In this document: one piece after another, positions 5,802 to 13,757 of the stretch
Position numbering within the stretch: the stretch's first letter is position 1
How the letters are laid out: each line of letters opens with the position of its first letter
NCBI GenBank assembly: GCA_963783305.1
Contig: CAWAMW010000002.1
Coordinates: 832,001 to 896,000 of the forward strand
DNA from: an uncultured Gemmatimonadales bacterium
Lineage (GTDB): Bacteria; Gemmatimonadota; Gemmatimonadetes; Longimicrobiales; RSA9
Length of the DNA: 64,000 nt
Direction of reading: 5' to 3'
Made by a program: the position numbers and the translations under genes
Notes under the pieces: generated by a model
The model's input: only the letters and a program-made list of their open reading frames with translations
Told to the model about the DNA's origin: nothing
Database searches by the model: none

Positions 5802-5934
5802 CGGTCGCCGTGGGTGACGGTTCATCCGGTCTGCACATACGGCGCGGAGCGCCCCCCGGTTTCGTCGAGGATGCTGGTCTCCGTCTTGCCGCGAATCTAT
5901 CTTGCGAAGATCACATCCACCGTTGGGAAGTGCC

Positions 5935-6336
5935 ATGGACGAGCGGGCGACGCGAGAGGAACTCAACCGGCGGTACTGGGAGTCTGACGAGTCGGTCTCC
6001 GGGATCGCCGATTCCCTGGACGTCTCCCGCCGCGCGCTGTACGACGCCATCGATCCACAGCCGGCTGACGCGGCGTGTCCCGCGTGTGGCGGGGCGCTGG
6101 GGTTCCGGAACCGGACCAGCGCCGAAAACCGGGAAGCGGAGTGCCAGGAGTGTGGGAACGAAGTCCGGCTCGACCGCGACCGGGGTGACGCAGAGCCCGT
6201 CGAGCAGGAGCGCGTGGTGGGATCGCTATCTCCCGTGCCGAGATCGACGCCCGGCAGCGGACCTGCGGCGGGTGTCATGCTGCTGCTGGGAATGGCTTTG
6301 GGCGCGGGCGCCGCGTACTTCTTCCGCCGCGCGTGA
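5935..6336 (+). CDS. Hypothetical protein: HTH-like segment, zinc ribbon and C-terminal membrane anchor
   Basis: SVSGIADSLDVSRRALY; CPACG...CQECG; VMLLLGMALGAGAAYFFRR. Confidence 0.7.
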   Translation: MDERATREELNRRYWESDESVSGIADSLDVSRRALYDAIDPQPADAACPACGGALGFRNRTSAENREAECQECGNEVRLDRDRGDAEPVEQERVVGSLSPVPRSTPGSGPAAGVMLLLGMALGAGAAYFFRRA

Positions 6337-7710: not shown

Positions 7711-7989
7711 TCAATGCACGGCGTCGATGGTGCGGGCCAGATCGAAGTCCCGGCCGGTGAGACCGCCCTCGCTGTGGGTCGAAAGGGAGCAGGCCACACG
7801 ATCGAAGCGGATGTCGATGTCCGGGTGGTGGTCGGCCTTCTGTGCGACCTCCGCGATCCGATTGACGAAAGCGATCGCCTCGGGGAAGGTGTCGAGCGTA
7901 TACGTCTTTCGGATCACGTCCCCTTCACGGGTCCAGCCGCGGAGCTCATCCAGTCGTGTGCGGATCTCCTGGTCATCGAGCAATCTCAT
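7711..7989 (-). CDS. phhB: Pterin-4-alpha-carbinolamine dehydratase
   Basis: AIAFVNRIAEVAQKADHHPDI...LSTHSEGGLTGRDFDLA; GGAGG RBS before ATG at 7989. Confidence 0.95.
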   Translation of the reverse strand: MRLLDDQEIRTRLDELRGWTREGDVIRKTYTLDTFPEAIAFVNRIAEVAQKADHHPDIDIRFDRVACSLSTHSEGGLTGRDFDLARTIDAVH

Positions 7990-8121
7990 GCTGCCTCCGG
8001 ATAGGGACCTGCGGGGAACGGCTGCGTTCACGGCCCGCGAAGAGAGCAAGTCCGGAGCCGCGACCTCCAGGCGCTCCGGAACATTGCCTTTTCTCGGCGG
8101 CCCGACCACCTTACCCCACCC

Positions 8122-9093
8122 GTGACGGATTTGCTAATCACCGGCGCGACCGGCTTCGTCGGATCGCATCTCGTCGAAGCGCTGGCTCGTGGTGGTACCC
8201 GGGCCCGAGCGCTGGTGCGCCCGAGCAGTGACACCTCGCTGCTCGAGCGGCACGACATCACGCCGGTCATTGGCAGCCTCCAGGACGTAGACTCCCTCCG
8301 CCGTGCGCTGGGGGATGCCTCCGTCGTGGTTCACCTGGCGGCGGCGACCCGCGCCCTCACGGAGGCGGATTTCCATCGCGTGAACGCGCGCGGCACCGAG
8401 CGGCTGCTGGACGCGATGGAAGCGGATGGTGGGCGGCGGCGGATGGTGTACCTCAGCTCCCTGGCCGCGGTGGGCCCGACGCGGGGCCGCCCGGTGCGGC
8501 CGGACGATGACCCGCACCCGCTGACGCCGTACGGTAGGAGCAAGCTCGAGGGCGAGCGTGCGGCGCTCTCCCGGGAGGGCATGGACGTGGCGGTGCTGCG
8601 TCCGCCGGCGGTGTACGGCCCGCGGGACCGTGACCTGTTCACCTTCTTCAGGATGGCGCGATGGCATGTGCTGCCGACGGCGGGTCCTTCCGACCGGCCA
8701 ATGCAGCTCGTGTATGCGCCCGACCTGGCGGACGCGATCACGGCCGCGGCGGAACCCGGCGCGGCGACGGGGGTGTTCCACGTGGCCGAGCCGAGGGAGT
8801 ACCCGTGGTCGGAAGTGATCCGGCTGGTGGGCGCGGCCGTGGATCGCCGGACGGTGGTGGTGCGGGTGCCGGACGTGCTGGTGAAGGCGGCCGCGACGCT
8901 CACCGAGGCGCTGGCGCGGCGGGCGGGCAGAGCGGTTATCTTCGACCGCGCCAAGGCCCGGGAGCTACTCGCGCCCGGATGGACCTGTGAAACGGAATCT
9001 GCGCGGCTCGGACTCGGGTTCGAAGCGCCGACACCACTGGCGGAAGGTCTGGAGAAAACCGCACGGTGGTACAGGGCGAATGGCTGGCTTTGA
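8122..9093 (+). CDS. Extended SDR, NAD-dependent epimerase/dehydratase; candidate ceramide/3-ketosphinganine reductase (CerR-like)
   Basis: ITGATGFVG, YGRSK, LRPPAVYGP; first gene of the spt operon. The reductase role is inferred from context. Confidence 0.8.
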   Translation: MTDLLITGATGFVGSHLVEALARGGTRARALVRPSSDTSLLERHDITPVIGSLQDVDSLRRALGDASVVVHLAAATRALTEADFHRVNARGTERLLDAMEADGGRRRMVYLSSLAAVGPTRGRPVRPDDDPHPLTPYGRSKLEGERAALSREGMDVAVLRPPAVYGPRDRDLFTFFRMARWHVLPTAGPSDRPMQLVYAPDLADAITAAAEPGAATGVFHVAEPREYPWSEVIRLVGAAVDRRTVVVRVPDVLVKAAATLTEALARRAGRAVIFDRAKARELLAPGWTCETESARLGLGFEAPTPLAEGLEKTARWYRANGWL

Positions 9094-9120
9094 GTCGTTG
9101 GAGCGATAGCTGGGGGGTCG

Positions 9121-10302
9121 ATGAGTCTGTTCGATAAGTGCTACGGGTACACGACGGCCCGGGAGGTCGAGGCCACCGGGTACTACCCGTATTTCCGGGC
9201 CATCTCCGAATCGCATGACACGGAAGTGGTCGTGGAGGGTCACCGGAAGGTGATGGTCGGCTCCAACAATTACCTGGGGCTCACGCACCACCCCCGGGTG
9301 CTGGCCGCGGCGGAGGAGGCGCTGCGGCGGTATGGCAGCGGCTGCACCGGCAGCCGGTTCCTCAACGGCACCCTGGACCTGCACGAGCGTCTCGAGGACG
9401 AGCTCGCGGCGTTCCTCGGGAAGGAGTCGGCGCTCGTGTTCAGCACCGGTTTCCAGACGAACCTGGGCGTTATTGCGAGTCTGGCCGGGCGCGGGGACCA
9501 CATCTTCAGCGACAAGTTGAACCATGCCAGCATCGTGGATGGACTCCGCCTCTCCTACGGGGAGTCCCACCGCTACGGGCACGCGGACATGGAAGGGCTC
9601 GAGCGTCGGCTGAAGAGCGTGCCGGAGGAGGCGGGCAAGATGATCGTCACGGACGGCATCTTCTCCATGGAGGGTGACATCGCGCCGCTCCCGGCCATCA
9701 CCTCGCTGGCGAAGGTGCATGGCGCGAAGGTGGTGGTCGATGACGCGCACGCGTTCGGGGTCCTGGGTCGCACGGGAGCGGGCACGGCGGAGCACTTCGG
9801 CCTGGTAGACGAGGTGGACCTGATCGTGACCACGTTCTCGAAGTCGCTGGCGTCCATTGGGGGCGTGGTGGCCGGCCCCGAGGCGGTGATCCACTACCTG
9901 AAGCACCACGCGCGTCCGCTCATCTTCAGCGCGAGCATGCCGCCATCGGCGGTGGCGACCGTGCTGGCCGCGCTGGACGTGCTGAGGACGGAGCCGGAGC
10001 GGCTGGAGTCGCTCTGGCGCAACACGCGCAGGATGCAGGCGGGGCTGAAGGACCTCGGCTACGACATCGGGGACAGCGAGACGCCGGTGGTGCCCGTGGT
10101 GATCGGCGAGCTCGACCGGATGCTCATGTTCTGGAAGGAGCTCTTCGACGCCGGCGTCTTCACGAACCCGGTCACTCCGCCGGCGGTGCCCGAGGACTCC
10201 TGCCGTCTCCGTATCTCCCTGATGGCCACGCATACGGACGACCACATCGACCAGGTCCTCGAGGCCTTCTCGCAGGTGGGCAGGCAGATGGCGGTCATCT
10301 GA
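9121..10302 (+). CDS. spt: Serine palmitoyltransferase (alpha-oxoamine synthase)
   Basis: YPYFRAI, MVGSNNYLGL, GSGCTGSRFLNGTLDLH, HASIVDG, DDAH, TFSKSLAS, IFSAS, RISLMATH resemble Bacteroidota-type Spt; adjacent to a bCerS-type GNAT. Confidence 0.85.
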   Translation: MSLFDKCYGYTTAREVEATGYYPYFRAISESHDTEVVVEGHRKVMVGSNNYLGLTHHPRVLAAAEEALRRYGSGCTGSRFLNGTLDLHERLEDELAAFLGKESALVFSTGFQTNLGVIASLAGRGDHIFSDKLNHASIVDGLRLSYGESHRYGHADMEGLERRLKSVPEEAGKMIVTDGIFSMEGDIAPLPAITSLAKVHGAKVVVDDAHAFGVLGRTGAGTAEHFGLVDEVDLIVTTFSKSLASIGGVVAGPEAVIHYLKHHARPLIFSASMPPSAVATVLAALDVLRTEPERLESLWRNTRRMQAGLKDLGYDIGDSETPVVPVVIGELDRMLMFWKELFDAGVFTNPVTPPAVPEDSCRLRISLMATHTDDHIDQVLEAFSQVGRQMAVI

Positions 10303-10304
10303 CG

Positions 10305-11453
10305 ATGCCCGAACAGGCCCACTCCCCGCTGACGGTGGTACCCGCGCGGGAGCGGTCGACCCGTGCACGCTTCATCGGCCTGCCGTGGGACATCTACGCC
10401 GGGGATGAGGCCTGGGTCCCACCCCTCCGCTCCGATGTGCGCAAGCTCATGGACCCGGCGCACCCCTTCCACGAGCACGCGGACGCCGAGTTCTTCCTGG
10501 CACTGGACGGGGACGGTAGGGCTGTGGGGCGGATCGCGGCGGTGGTGAACCGGCTGTACAACGAGTTCCACGACAGTCGAACGGGGTTCATCGGCCTGTT
10601 CGAGTCGGTGGACGATGGGAGTGTGGCGAGGGCGCTGCTGGAGACGGCCAGCGACTGGCTGCGGGCACGGGGGATGACGGAGGTCATGGGCCCGTTCAAC
10701 CTGTCGACCAACGACGAACTGTACTCGCCGGGGATCCTGCTGGACTCCTTCGACCAGCCGCCCGTCCTGCTCATGGCCCACAACCCGCCATACTATCGTC
10801 GACTGTTCGAGGAAGCCGGGTGGGAGAAGCGGAAGGACCTTCTGTCCTACTGGATGGAAGAGGAGACGGCCCCGCCGGAGCGGCTGGTGGAGGGGATGCG
10901 CCGCCTGGCGGATCGGGTGGACGGGCTGGTCGTGCGGCAGCTTCGTCTGAAAGAGCTGGACCGCGAGGTGGAGCGGATCAGGGAAGTGTACAACTCGGCG
11001 TGGGAGCGGAACTGGGGGTTCACTCCGCTGACCAATGCCGAGATCGAGCACCTCGCGTCGGATCTGAAACCCATCGTGGACGAGCGGTATGCGCTCATCG
11101 CCGAGGTCCACGGCGAGCCGGTGGGCTTCGCGCTCGCCCTTCCGGACTACAACCAGGCACTCCGCCACGTGAATGGCCGACTCTTTCCGCTGGGCATCCT
11201 GAAGCTCCTCTGGTACCGCCGAAAGATCAATCGGCTGCGCGTGCTCACCCTTGGCCTCAAGCCGGGGTACCAGCGGAAGGGCATCGATGCCCTCTTCTAC
11301 CTCAAGATCTATCAGAACGGGCTCGCCGCCGGTCTGCATCAGGCCGAGGCATCATGGATCCTGGAGGACAACTGGGGCATGCGGCGTGGGCTGGAGCGGA
11401 TGGGCGCCTACGTGTACAAAACCTACCGGGTCTACGGCACGGAGCTTGGCTGA
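10305..11453 (+). CDS. Tandem GNAT acyltransferase, bacterial ceramide synthase (bCerS) family
   Basis: FIGLPWDIY...WVPPL...HPF...VGRIAA...GFIGLFES...GPFNLSTN...HNPPYY...NWGFTP...SWILEDN...KTYRVY. Confidence 0.82.
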   Translation: MPEQAHSPLTVVPARERSTRARFIGLPWDIYAGDEAWVPPLRSDVRKLMDPAHPFHEHADAEFFLALDGDGRAVGRIAAVVNRLYNEFHDSRTGFIGLFESVDDGSVARALLETASDWLRARGMTEVMGPFNLSTNDELYSPGILLDSFDQPPVLLMAHNPPYYRRLFEEAGWEKRKDLLSYWMEEETAPPERLVEGMRRLADRVDGLVVRQLRLKELDREVERIREVYNSAWERNWGFTPLTNAEIEHLASDLKPIVDERYALIAEVHGEPVGFALALPDYNQALRHVNGRLFPLGILKLLWYRRKINRLRVLTLGLKPGYQRKGIDALFYLKIYQNGLAAGLHQAEASWILEDNWGMRRGLERMGAYVYKTYRVYGTELG

Positions 11454-12306
11454 CCCTTCCGCATCCCCCGTCGACCGGCTGCTGGGCGGCTACCTCCTCC
11501 TCACCGCCCTCGCGGTGGCGTTCCCGCACAGGCCGGAAGGCTGGCCAGTCCTGCTTTCCGCCCACCTGGCGCTGGGGCTGGCGCTCCTCGCGGGCGCTCC
11601 CCACCGGATCCAGGCGACCACGCGATCCAAGCCGATCCGCGTTCTCGTCGACTGGTACCCGCTGCTTCTCATGCCCGCGCTGTACTGGGAGCTGCCGATG
11701 CTTGGTGGCTCGCTCTGGGGCGGCCATTTCTTCGATGCCGTGGTCCAGAGCTGGGAAGCCCGACTGTTCGGCGGTCAGCCGAGCGCGGATTTGGCGGGGC
11801 GCTTGCCCTGGCTGCCGCTCTCAGAGCTGCTGCACCTCTTCTATCTCGCCTACTACCCCGTCATCTACCTCTTTCCGGCGGTGCTGTACATCCGTGGACG
11901 GAGGGAGTCGTTCCGGGCCACGGTGTTCGCCGTCATGTTCGGCTTCACGGCCTGCTACGTGGTCTTCACGCTCTTTCCCGTGCAGGGGCCCCGCTACCTC
12001 TTCCCCGCACCGGGCGGGGCTCCCGCCGATGGCTGGGTGTACCAGCTGACCCACCGGATCCTCGAGAACGGGTCCAGCCAGGGTGCGGCGTTCCCATCCT
12101 CCCACGCGGCGATCGCCGCCGTGCAGACGGTGAACGCGCGCCGATACCTGCCTAAGGCGACCCCGCTCCTGGCGCTGATCACCGCGGGGATCTGCGCGGG
12201 GGCGGTGTACGGCGGCTTCCACTACGGCATCGATATGGTGATCGGTGCGGCGTTCGGGTTCTTCCTGGGCTGGCTGGCGCCCTCCGCTCGCCGGGCGCTG
12301 GCGTGA
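11446..12306 (+). CDS. PAP2-superfamily membrane phosphotransferase, AUR1/IPC-synthase-like
   Basis: Multi-TM; FPVQGPRY, AFPSSH and HYGID (His-His-Asp triad); TTG start overlaps the GNAT stop. Confidence 0.8.
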   Translation: MADPSASPVDRLLGGYLLLTALAVAFPHRPEGWPVLLSAHLALGLALLAGAPHRIQATTRSKPIRVLVDWYPLLLMPALYWELPMLGGSLWGGHFFDAVVQSWEARLFGGQPSADLAGRLPWLPLSELLHLFYLAYYPVIYLFPAVLYIRGRRESFRATVFAVMFGFTACYVVFTLFPVQGPRYLFPAPGGAPADGWVYQLTHRILENGSSQGAAFPSSHAAIAAVQTVNARRYLPKATPLLALITAGICAGAVYGGFHYGIDMVIGAAFGFFLGWLAPSARRALA

Positions 12307-13046
12307 ACCGGCGACTCGGGTGGGCGGTGGGGCTTGGAACAGCGGCCATCACGCTTGGGCTCTGGCTCGTACTGGAGGGGCTGCCGTGGCCGTCCCGCTC
12401 CTTCACCGTGGTGCTGCTGGGGCCGCTCCCGGCGCTGATGCTGCTGCAGGCCCGGATGGTGGACCGCATGCCGCAGGAAGCGGAGCGCGAGGCGGTATAT
12501 GTGTCCTCGGCCGTCACCGTGTGGCTCCTGGCCGGGCTGGCAATGCTGGCCGCGCGCCTGAGCGGAATCACCCGTGAGGAGCTGCGACTCGTCGACCTGC
12601 CGGTCGGCACTCTCCTTCTCGCCGCCGGGGTGACCGTGGGAGCGGGTGTGGCGATCATGGCGGTGGGCAAGCTCGTGCGGGTCCCCGAGTCCGACCTGCT
12701 GGGGTACCTGATACCCCGGAGCGGCAGCGAGAGGATCGCATTCACCGGACTCTCCATCTCGGCGGGGATCGCCGAGGAGCTCGTCTATCGCAGCTTCCTG
12801 ATCTCGGCCGTCACCGCGGCGGCCGGGTCCCTCGCCGTCGGGGCGGCCGTGAGCGTGGGGGCATTCGCGATTTCCCACGCGTATCAGGGTGTTCTCGGCG
12901 TGCTGCGCGTAGCACTCCTCGGGCTCGTTCTCACGGCTCCGTTCCTGCTCACCGGCAGCGTCTATCCCGCCATGATCGCCCACGCCTCGCTCGACCTCCT
13001 GGCCGGTCTCGTCCTGGCCGACTGGCTCCTGCCCGACGGGGACTGA
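12303..13046 (+). CDS. CPBP (Rce1/Abi-like) intramembrane glutamic protease
   Basis: AGIAEELVYR, FAISHAYQG, AMIAHASLD; GTGA overlap with the PAP2 gene. Confidence 0.92.
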   Translation: MNRRLGWAVGLGTAAITLGLWLVLEGLPWPSRSFTVVLLGPLPALMLLQARMVDRMPQEAEREAVYVSSAVTVWLLAGLAMLAARLSGITREELRLVDLPVGTLLLAAGVTVGAGVAIMAVGKLVRVPESDLLGYLIPRSGSERIAFTGLSISAGIAEELVYRSFLISAVTAAAGSLAVGAAVSVGAFAISHAYQGVLGVLRVALLGLVLTAPFLLTGSVYPAMIAHASLDLLAGLVLADWLLPDGD

Positions 13047-13346: not shown

Positions 13347-13757
13347 ATGATCCTGCGACTTTCGTTCGAAGAAATGACGGCGCTCAACTCCGCGGCGCAG
13401 CGGCTGTTCGACGCGACCGGTGGTGGGACCGTGCTGGCCCCGCCCGAGGCGATGGCGGAGCTGGAGTCCCGCCTTCCGCTGGAGGGCGACATCTCGGTAA
13501 AGACGCTGCCCGAGCAGTTCCGGCTGAGCGGTGCCGTCGCGATGATCCTCGACGACCTGAAGCTGCGCATGGACAGGTTCATCGTAGAGCAGTACGTGGG
13601 CTCCGAGGACGCGGTCAACGCGTACTTCGATTATGCCAACGTGCTCGCGGCCCAGGCGCGGCTCATGGGTCTCCGGCACGAGATGGAGGCCCTGGCGGAG
13701 ATCATGGCGGGCGACGATCCGGCCCAGCGACTGGAGGGGATCACGTTCCCGGATTGA
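13347..13757 (+). CDS. Hypothetical alpha-helical protein
   Basis: Strong GGGGAGG RBS; MILRLSFEEMTALN...ITFPD; normal codon usage. Confidence 0.8.
   Translation: MILRLSFEEMTALNSAAQRLFDATGGGTVLAPPEAMAELESRLPLEGDISVKTLPEQFRLSGAVAMILDDLKLRMDRFIVEQYVGSEDAVNAYFDYANVLAAQARLMGLRHEMEALAEIMAGDDPAQRLEGITFPD

Follow-up and report, generated by a model that had tools for sequence, protein, structure and literature searches.

The window analysed here, a stretch of 64,000 nucleotides from an uncultured Gemmatimonadota bacterium (G000:C2:832001-896000; genome G000 is 4.35 Mb and 96% complete), contains at positions 8122-12306 four packed genes, called here genes 1 to 4, which we read as a conserved cluster making a phosphosphingolipid, most likely inositol phospho-dihydroceramide. 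We give this reading as a whole a probability of about 0.5, and its parts differ in strength: we are confident that the cluster makes a ceramide backbone, and it is likely that gene 4 adds a phosphorylated head group to that ceramide. In the proposed pathway, serine and a fatty acyl thioester would be joined by gene 2, the N-acyl chain would be attached by gene 3 and the 3-keto group reduced by gene 1; gene 4 would take phosphoinositol from phosphatidylinositol (PI) and transfer it to the ceramide. By analogy with the yeast enzyme Aur1, for which a two-step mechanism involving H294, H255 and D298 has been proposed (PMC13133130), this transfer might use phosphorylated His259 as an intermediate and release diacylglycerol. 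We infer the pathway chemistry, the order of acylation and reduction, the two-step mechanism and the preference for inositol over ethanolamine or glycerol by analogy with characterised systems.

The predicted head-group transferase and its probable donor

Gene 4 (positions 11446..12306, + strand, TTG start, 286 aa) encodes a membrane PAP2_3 protein, predicted to be an Aur1-like phospho-head-group transferase. A profile of 36 homologues had Aur1 (9vj3, E 8e-5) as its best match in the PDB, over positions 8-280, and matched phosphatases over its last 60-75 positions only. The AlphaFold2 model of gene 4 (pLDDT 95.5) gave Aur1 (9vj4 and 9ivc) as the sole Foldseek matches at E<1e-3, with TM-scores of 0.58-0.63 and 17-18% identity. 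With VIA-align, Aur1 9ivc reached Z 17.9 (root-mean-square deviation 4.8, 262 aligned positions) and the phosphatase LpxE a tied Z of 17.1 over a shorter core (deviation 2.8, 161 aligned), and SMSr, which uses phosphatidylethanolamine (PE), stayed at Z 10.4 with 188 aligned. The putative catalytic triad H220, H259 and D263 aligns with Aur1 H255, H294 and D298 in the motifs AFPSxH and HxxxD, and all 47 complete homologues keep the His-His-Asp triad. Each of the three Aur1 residues is essential, and Aur1 is strict for PI (PMC13133130).

PAP2 phosphatases carry the motifs C1 (KxxxxxxRP) and C3 (SRxxxxxHxxxD), the latter visible in our alignment as SRVYLGVH in Bacillus subtilis PgpB. No gene 4 homologue (0/47) has the C1 KxnRP motif, and none has arginine at position -6 of C3, which holds Thr, Ala, Val or Gly instead and is Thr in Aur1 as well; on these residues gene 4 does not fit the PAP2 lipid phosphate phosphatases of the PgpB/LpxE type. 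Taken together with the structural model, gene 4 likely acts as a phosphodiester head-group transferase. The first-pass annotation of this stretch, made from the letters alone, had called it AUR1-like and named the Bacteroides enzyme BT_1522 alongside. The resemblance to Aur1-type transferases over PAP2 phosphatases stands on profile, fold, triad and the missing arginine, and membership of the BT_1522 family does not, as gene 4 scores 26.4 bits on the BT_1522 model NF052609 for a cut-off of 480. Even so, when that model was used to scan the whole genome, gene 4 was its sole match (22.6 bits), in a scan that Bacteroides thetaiotaomicron passes. Fusions of gene 4 homologues, one each to an FkbM methyltransferase, a PF04932 domain and a short-chain dehydrogenase/reductase (SDR), are not informative on the donor.

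The same annotation had found no genes for inositol supply in the window and had left the head group open and possibly new. That observation concerned the window, and the genome's single match for myo-inositol-phosphate synthase (MIPS) lies on another contig; at the level of the genome the notion of a missing inositol supply was rejected: contig C11 carries the MIPS gene (C11:77376-78692, Pfam 342 and 110 bits) and, upstream of and overlapping it, a CDP-alcohol transferase resembling phosphatidylinositol-phosphate (PIP) synthase (C11:76721-77383). All NCBIfam matches of the latter are inositol-lipid synthases (163, 145 and 134 bits, below cut-off), PgsA is not matched, and its DxxDGxxAR...GxxxDxxxD motif is intact. 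The pair (C11:76721-78692; L125:10722-12693) lies among housekeeping genes (rpmE, prfA, prmC and a tmk-like gene, recognised by eye from translations). With this pair supplying inositol, the product would not come from a single locus, contrary to what had been claimed. Six relatives appeared to lack MIPS, and we rechecked all of them but G054: in G005 and G031 a contig end interrupts the inositol pair, two genomes are themselves incomplete (G012 at 80%, G026 at 62%), and G038 (95%) has neither inositol genes nor gene 4.

Using 151 genomes of the class, each at least 90% complete, with orthologue cut-offs of E<1e-40 for gene 4 and E<1e-120 for spt (gene 2), a PIP-synthase-like gene was seen in 129, which predicts PI for most Gemmatimonadota, whether or not they have ceramide genes. 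It accompanies gene 4 in 80 of 81 genomes and is found in all 76 that have both spt and gene 4. Several findings weigh against inositol as the head group, or at least take force from these figures. Of the 70 genomes that lack gene 4, 49 still have the synthase gene, and 55 of 61 relatives of the order have MIPS; the co-occurrence with gene 4 therefore speaks of availability and not of coupling. Eighty metagenome loci, many of which are short, showed neither MIPS nor PIP synthase next to gene 4, a search of the genome for a PIP phosphatase of the PgpA family (BT_1525 type) found none, and the genome encodes PssA, Psd and a PgsA-like protein, making PE and phosphatidylglycerol (PG) available as donors. 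Gene 4 itself, at 26 bits on the BT_1522 model and 17-18% identity to Aur1, is too distant from both to fix the donor.

Some of these points also favour a pathway with the same ceramide in which gene 4 would use PE or PG as the source of a phosphoethanolamine or phosphoglycerol head, the product being ethanolamine- or glycerol-phosphoceramide. We consider this unlikely. In its favour, the PssA, Psd and PgsA-like genes would furnish the donors, the two characterised inositol transferases are both distant from gene 4, and gene 4 has no inositol neighbour, whereas BT_1522 sits in an inositol operon. In addition, B. thetaiotaomicron gave no match for an ethanolamine phosphoceramide synthase in a BLAST search with the Drosophila enzyme (as described in PMC8791184), and gene 4 would then represent such an enzyme type in bacteria. 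Against this, the closest solved fold to gene 4 is that of the PI-specific Aur1, well above that of SMSr, the only gene matched by the BT_1522 model in the genome is gene 4, and the PIP-synthase-like gene is universal in genomes having spt and gene 4. Provided that gene 4 adds a phosphorylated head group to ceramide, inositol is our best guess for that group, at little better than even odds.

Linkage of gene 4 to the predicted ceramide genes

Gene linkage supports a ceramide acceptor. Among the 151 genomes, gene 4 was present in 81 and spt in 82; 76 had both (71 of them within 5 kb), 64 had neither, five had gene 4 only and six spt only. Two of the five gene-4-only cases (G104 and G177) are assembly breaks with a partial spt adjoining. 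In 80 loci fetched by gene 3 (bcerS) alone, many of them cut short, gene 2 was found in 65, gene 1 (cerR) in 61, gene 4 in 49 and gene 5 (the protease gene that follows gene 4) in 19, and since loci picked by gene 3 mostly hold genes 2, 1 and 4, the clustering is not a matter of chance. In the reverse direction, the 80 metagenome loci, fetched by the gene 4 profile, contained a gene 3 relative in 55 cases. The linkage is seen in three layouts, namely cerR-spt-bcerS-gene 4 as in the window, spt-bcerS-cerR-gene 4 in other Gemmatimonadota, Eisenbacteria, TA06 and Sumerlaeota, and a third (19 of the 80 metagenome loci) in which gene 4 is divergent from bcerS, head to head with it.

One family of the class (f3) has spt and bcerS in 12/12 genomes and a gene 4 orthologue in 0/12. 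In eight of these, glycosyltransferase genes of the GT4 or GT2 families are located beside the core, as they are in two of three further spt-only genomes, which is as expected if a head-group slot next to the ceramide genes is filled by different enzymes. Genome G000 has a group of genes at C7:12534-16977 (L210:7535-11978) with a PAP2 phosphatase-type gene, two GT4 genes and an LPG_synthase_TM gene, and orthologues of the GT4 and LPG_synthase_TM genes adjoin the core in f3; it is possibly a glycolipid module, perhaps for a glycosphingolipid.

A ceramide acceptor for gene 4 has evidence against it as well. The genomes are kin and not independent samples, so that the counts overstate the linkage. 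The GT4 and LPG_synthase_TM orthologues on C7 mean that the head-group swap is not exclusive. Four relatives (G014, 98% complete; G015, 96%; G024, 95%; G049, 95%) keep gene 4 with an intact triad and have no spt or bcerS orthologue, their best matches being 40-43% for spt and 0-33% for bcerS. The G014 locus (L152, C17) reads cerR-gene 4-gene 5, with spt and bcerS cleanly gone and no assembly gap, and the G024 locus (L157, C31) is reduced to gene 4-gene 5, spt, bcerS and cerR being gone, again with no gap. On the Spt model, the best-scoring oxoamine synthase reaches 376 bits in G014 and 342 bits in G049, close to the BioF scores. In these relatives gene 4 may be a recent relic, or may act on another amino-alcohol lipid or on a diacylglycerol acceptor. 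Finally, additional paralogues of gene 4 occur in 17 of the 81 genomes, a number of them in cassettes free of spt, and therefore the gene 4 family need not act on ceramide. Two such paralogues (L207 and L208, in G089:C40 and G062:C107) are convergent with or beside genes for a fatty acid hydroxylase, a NeuB-family protein and a class III aminotransferase.

The spt-free relatives and cassettes also support a different view, which we hold to be improbable, that genes 1-3 make ceramide and gene 4 is a glycerolipid enzyme or a hydrolase which is only co-regulated with them, either exchanging head groups with diacylglycerol or dephosphorylating PIP, phosphatidylglycerol phosphate (PGP) or ceramide-1-phosphate. 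There is no PgpA in the genome, so that another enzyme must dephosphorylate PIP and PGP, and over the core domain the Z-score of LpxE is on a par with that of Aur1. Speaking against it are the replaced C3 arginine and absent C1 motif in every homologue, the extension of the Aur1 match to extra N-terminal helices, the presence of other PAP2 proteins in the genome for phosphatase work, and a linkage to bcerS that survives three gene layouts.

The predicted ceramide genes, the probable operon and the adjoining protease

The ceramide backbone itself, common to both the inositol pathway and the alternatives above, is read from genes 1 to 3. Gene 2 (9121..10302, + strand, ATG start, 393 aa) encodes a pyridoxal-phosphate-dependent alpha-oxoamine synthase of the serine palmitoyltransferase (SPT) clade, predicted from its sequence to condense L-serine with a fatty acyl thioester. 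Its NCBIfam scores are 546 bits for Spt (CFB) NF047600, its best model overall, 415 for BioF, 398 for Kbl and 270 for HemA, all below cut-off (640 for NF047600, one of three Spt models that are lineage-specific), and in the PDB it matches SPT best (8guh and 3a2b, 453 bits), ahead of Kbl (279), BioF (249) and the cysteate enzyme (249). In a tree of 33 rows it falls inside the Spt clade together with the Spt of Escherichia coli BL21, Roseomonas, Sphingomonas and Bacteroidales (support 97/86), and in a tree of 16 rows the Spt clade containing gene 2 is supported at 100/99; the labels of the references come from the annotation of their records or from gene context, and E. coli BL21 Spt is the only one named in a paper cited here (PMC9386255). 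Groupings of gene 2 with BioF and with Kbl were both rejected by approximately unbiased (AU) tests on the 16-row tree (p 0.000126 and 3.1e-06), and the first-pass assignment to Spt was upheld by these trees, built with BioF, Kbl and HemA. A BioF role would furthermore leave gene 2 without a pathway, because neither bioB nor bioD had a match in genome G000, and a separate Kbl-like gene, which groups with Kbl in the tree, is found on C16. E. coli BL21 Spt matches gene 2 best in the genome, at 41% identity.

Besides gene 2, the genome has two further alpha-oxoamine synthases, the Kbl-like one and another on a long branch just outside the Spt clade. The latter, at G000:C2:625121-627587 (L129:5122-7588), is found behind a zinc-dependent dehydrogenase, has no NCBIfam family as clear best match and has orthologues 66-69% identical in G014, G015 and G024; it could make another amino-alcohol lipid or metabolite. 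In a genome of the same order, L171 (G051:C35) is a ceramide cluster of proteobacterial type with a reductase, a short open reading frame (ORF) of the size of an acyl carrier protein (ACP), Spt and bCerS, and its Spt passes the betaproteobacterial NCBIfam cut-off with 617 bits, suggesting horizontal gain.

Gene 2 falling short of the NCBIfam Spt cut-off would agree with a sphingolipid-like product made from alanine, glycine or cysteate by an Spt-like enzyme that is not serine-specific, and Spt can use alanine (PMC11334938). We find this very unlikely, given that SPT is the closest solved enzyme, with the cysteate enzyme some way below. Moreover, alanine- or glycine-derived sphingoid products lack the 1-hydroxyl, which an Aur1-like partner needs.

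Gene 3 (10305..11453, + strand, ATG start, 382 aa) is a full-length homologue of YghO and the predicted bacterial ceramide synthase (bCerS), with spt in the same locus in 65 of the 80 gene 3 loci. E. coli BL21 YghO aligns with it at 34% identity over 367 aa (pairwise E 2e-71), and gene 3 is its sole tblastn match in the genome, which supports the first-pass assignment to bCerS; sequence searches of the PDB yielded no relative. The yghO product (ECD_02850) and Caulobacter CC_1154 are acyl-CoA N-acyltransferases, and ECD_02852 and CC_1164 are epimerases/dehydrogenases needed for dihydroceramide (PMC9386255). The closest titled relatives of gene 3, with 70-75% identity, are records from Longimicrobiales/Gemmatimonadota. 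A distant relative (25%) is found in the same genome at G000:C16:219729-220727 (L127:5730-6728) among the genes of another cluster, two loci (L160 and L161, in G057 and G043) hold a lone bCerS orthologue of 49-50% identity in genomes where the best Spt match is only 44%, and in one relative (G019:C3:541616-543682) genes 3 and 4 are each split across frames, probably by long-read sequencing errors.

Gene 1 (8122..9093, + strand, GTG start, 323 aa) encodes an extended SDR, predicted to be a CerR-type ceramide (3-keto) reductase, with 118 bits to Pfam Epimerase. ECD_02852 picks it first in the genome (107 bits, the next being 69; 32% identity), and so do the cluster reductases of Sphingomonas, Roseomonas, Rubrobacter and Aureispira, so that all five references agree with the CerR assignment of the first reading, as one-way best hits. 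Three plasmid records among 72,556 match gene 1 at E<1e-20, all with a gene 3 relative within 4 kb. Caulobacter CerR is periplasmic (PMC11087976), and the protein of gene 1 opens directly with the nucleotide-binding motif. There are two proposed orders for acylation and reduction in Caulobacter, a matter of dispute (PMC11087976). The cluster lacks lptFG and has no gene for a dedicated ACP or for an acyl-ACP synthetase; queries with AcpR and LptF found nothing in the genome (the short ACP query being insensitive), and AasR gave matches of only 22-27%. Because acpR and aasR are absent from the cluster, acyl-CoA would seem to be the acyl donor, and not a dedicated ACP, by comparison with the known systems.

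All five ORFs of the locus (genes 1 to 4 and a fifth downstream) are uninterrupted, run in one direction on the + strand and show GC contents at third codon positions (GC3) of 0.83-0.92 and spacings of 27, 2, -8 and -4 nucleotides, exactly as first described when coordinates and spacing were recomputed. The two overlaps recur in related loci (L031-L033), and the spacing would be compatible with co-transcription of the five genes. The frame of gene 4 is open further upstream, up to a TTG at 11251, a start that was rejected with GC3 there at 0.63 versus 0.86 for the gene 3 frame, and that is also disfavoured by most homologues starting near 11446. Upstream, the cluster borders on a short opposite-strand gene for pterin-carbinolamine dehydratase (7711-7986), and downstream 300 nucleotides separate it from the following gene, whose ATG is at 13347. 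Positions 8084..8112 on the + strand, 9 nucleotides before the start of gene 1, hold a promoter-like element (TTGCCT, a 17-nucleotide spacer and CACCTT) that would give the operon a very short leader; the pattern, chosen from aligned upstream regions after the sequences had been seen, matches 15 of 18 close loci and three places on both strands of the whole window. A strict sigma-70 scan returned 0 sites, and a terminator scan three terminator-like sites for 1.8 expected. Two small proteins without Pfam match (window 5902-6336 and 13347-13757) keep their position in the family, in 15/20 and 16/20 close loci. As had been foreseen, automated labels would probably miss the pathway: Pfam gives Epimerase, Aminotran_1_2, a weak GNAT, PAP2_3 and Rce1-like for genes 1-5, gene 2 reaches none of the NCBIfam cut-offs and no NCBIfam family exists for gene 3.

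Gene 5 (12303..13046, + strand, GTG start, 247 aa) encodes a CPBP (Rce1-like) intramembrane glutamic protease. CPBP proteases share the motifs EExxxR, FxxxH and HxxxN/D; gene 5 matches PF02517 with 57 bits, and its E158, E159, R163, H192, H227 and D231 are invariant in 12/12 aligned sequences, so it looks like an intact member. It adjoins the cluster in 19 of 20 close loci and in 0 of 60 distant ones (0 of 37 among those with at least 3.5 kb of downstream sequence, and the same by profile), 29 of the 60 distant loci having gene 4. Flanking genes of unrelated function are retained in the close loci at similar rates: an upstream aminotransferase in 18/20, a downstream hypothetical gene in 16/20 and a third flanking gene in 15/20. 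Synteny in relatives thus agrees with the five-gene operon first proposed as far as genes 1-4, linked across lineages, and departs from it for the protease, which behaves like its unrelated neighbours. Of the 35 family genomes carrying gene 5, 30 have it next to gene 4. It stays where gene 4 moves or is lost (G025 and G032), has homologues of 34-39% identity in genomes without the core (e.g., G037), and is one of five CPBP genes in genome G000. It is probably a family-level passenger, likely co-transcribed with the cluster in its family, and not part of the lipid pathway.

A second cassette, free of spt and composed of SDR, gene 4 paralogue, SDR and CPBP, was seen in five genomes (L193, L198, L200, L201 and L209, in G130, G063, G165, G124 and G069), with the SDR fused to the gene 4 paralogue in G165; its CPBP has WE in place of EE, a weak match to the MrtA model and no detectable relation to gene 5 (profile comparison, probability 0.7%). 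Because this genome alone has five CPBP genes, the recurrence is weak evidence for membership of gene 5. Gene 5 itself gave no match to Mrt (myxosortase) NCBIfam models at E<0.001, and three orthologues scored no higher than 27 bits, the cut-offs being 75-130. That the protease is a true fifth member, cleaving proteins and joining them to the phosphosphingolipid or signalling through it, therefore seems highly doubtful to us: the 4-nucleotide overlap, the adjacency to gene 4 kept even in G014 and G024, the unrelated subfamily ending the second cassette and the weak matches to myxosortase-type models favour it, and its absence from all distant loci, the equal retention of flanking genes, its persistence without gene 4, its homologues in core-less genomes and the plausibility of chance adjacency with five CPBP genes per genome all tell against it. 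The more specific idea that genes 4 and 5 form one module, in which the protease would cleave a C-terminal signal of surface proteins and join them to inositol phosphoceramide as a bacterial counterpart of ceramide-based glycosylphosphatidylinositol anchors, arises because two unrelated CPBP subfamilies each end a cassette with a gene 4 member and because the two genes stay together where spt and bcerS are lost; we rate it a far-fetched one.

Relation to described sphingolipid systems

The route to the ceramide backbone is the known bacterial Spt/bCerS/CerR pathway, extended rather than new. The same three enzyme types are known from Caulobacter (CC_1162, CC_1154 and CC_1164; PMC9386255, PMC11087976) and are clustered in the window, the best genome matches of the E. 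coli BL21(DE3) proteins ECD_02854, YghO (ECD_02850) and ECD_02852 (PMC9386255) all lie in the cluster, and bacterial ceramide genes are often clustered (PMC11334938). The cluster differs from those of Caulobacter and E. coli in lacking the dedicated ACP, acyl-ACP synthetase and lptFG genes, in an Spt nearer to the Bacteroidota type, and in a head-group gene that is Aur1-like and not part of a kinase route. The ceramide phosphoglycerate route of Caulobacter (CpgA/B/C; PMC11324152) likewise puts a phosphorylated head group on ceramide with genes clustered with the core, but it passes through ceramide kinase and ceramide-1-phosphate, and queries with the kinase, CDP-alcohol transferase and nucleotidyltransferase of the Roseomonas cluster had no match in genome G000.

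The nearest parallel for the predicted lipid is B. thetaiotaomicron, where BT_1522-1526 include phosphoinositol dihydroceramide synthase, PIP synthase, PIP phosphatase and MIPS, and BT_1522 makes phosphoinositol dihydroceramide, fed by PIP synthase and MIPS (PMC9246714, PMC8791184). Both genomes have an Aur1-like enzyme, a PIP-synthase-like enzyme, MIPS and Spt, with the same predicted lipid class. The layout is reversed, however, since here the Aur1-like gene is with the ceramide genes and the inositol genes form a separate pair, and similarity is low, gene 4 having 26 of 480 bits for BT_1522 and the PIP synthase 145 of 350 bits for BT_1523, with no PgpA/BT_1525-type phosphatase found. To Saccharomyces cerevisiae Aur1, catalytic subunit of inositol phosphoceramide synthase (9vj4, 9vj3 and 9ivc; PMC13133130), gene 4 is tied by profile and fold over nearly the whole length, by the triad motifs and by the Thr/Ala replacing the phosphatase arginine, at 17-18% identity and TM-scores of 0.58-0.63. 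What differs from these described systems is the layout, with a gene of an Aur1-like branch coupled to the ceramide genes and the inositol genes apart. Spt-like genes have been extended to 40 phyla, with Gemmatimonadota unnamed in the main text of that work (PMC11334938), whose supplement may list them; among the publications listed in searches on Gemmatimonadota sphingolipids or on bacterial PAP2 genes beside ceramide genes, none treats the cluster in its title or at the start of its abstract.

The gain is in the range of a known pathway and in one enzyme family. The branch of the Aur1 family to which gene 4 belongs is large, with 1,336 clusters at 50% identity (E<1e-30), and as a single small bacterial protein it could be assayed for donor and for aureobasidin sensitivity. 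In the papers cited here, inositol phosphoceramide in bacteria is shown mainly for Bacteroidota; if our reading is true, about half of the sampled genomes of this Gemmatimonadota class (76/151) would make phosphosphingolipids, probably inositol phosphoceramide, and fungi or plants could then not be taken automatically as the source of inositol ceramides in lipid extracts of soil or sediment.

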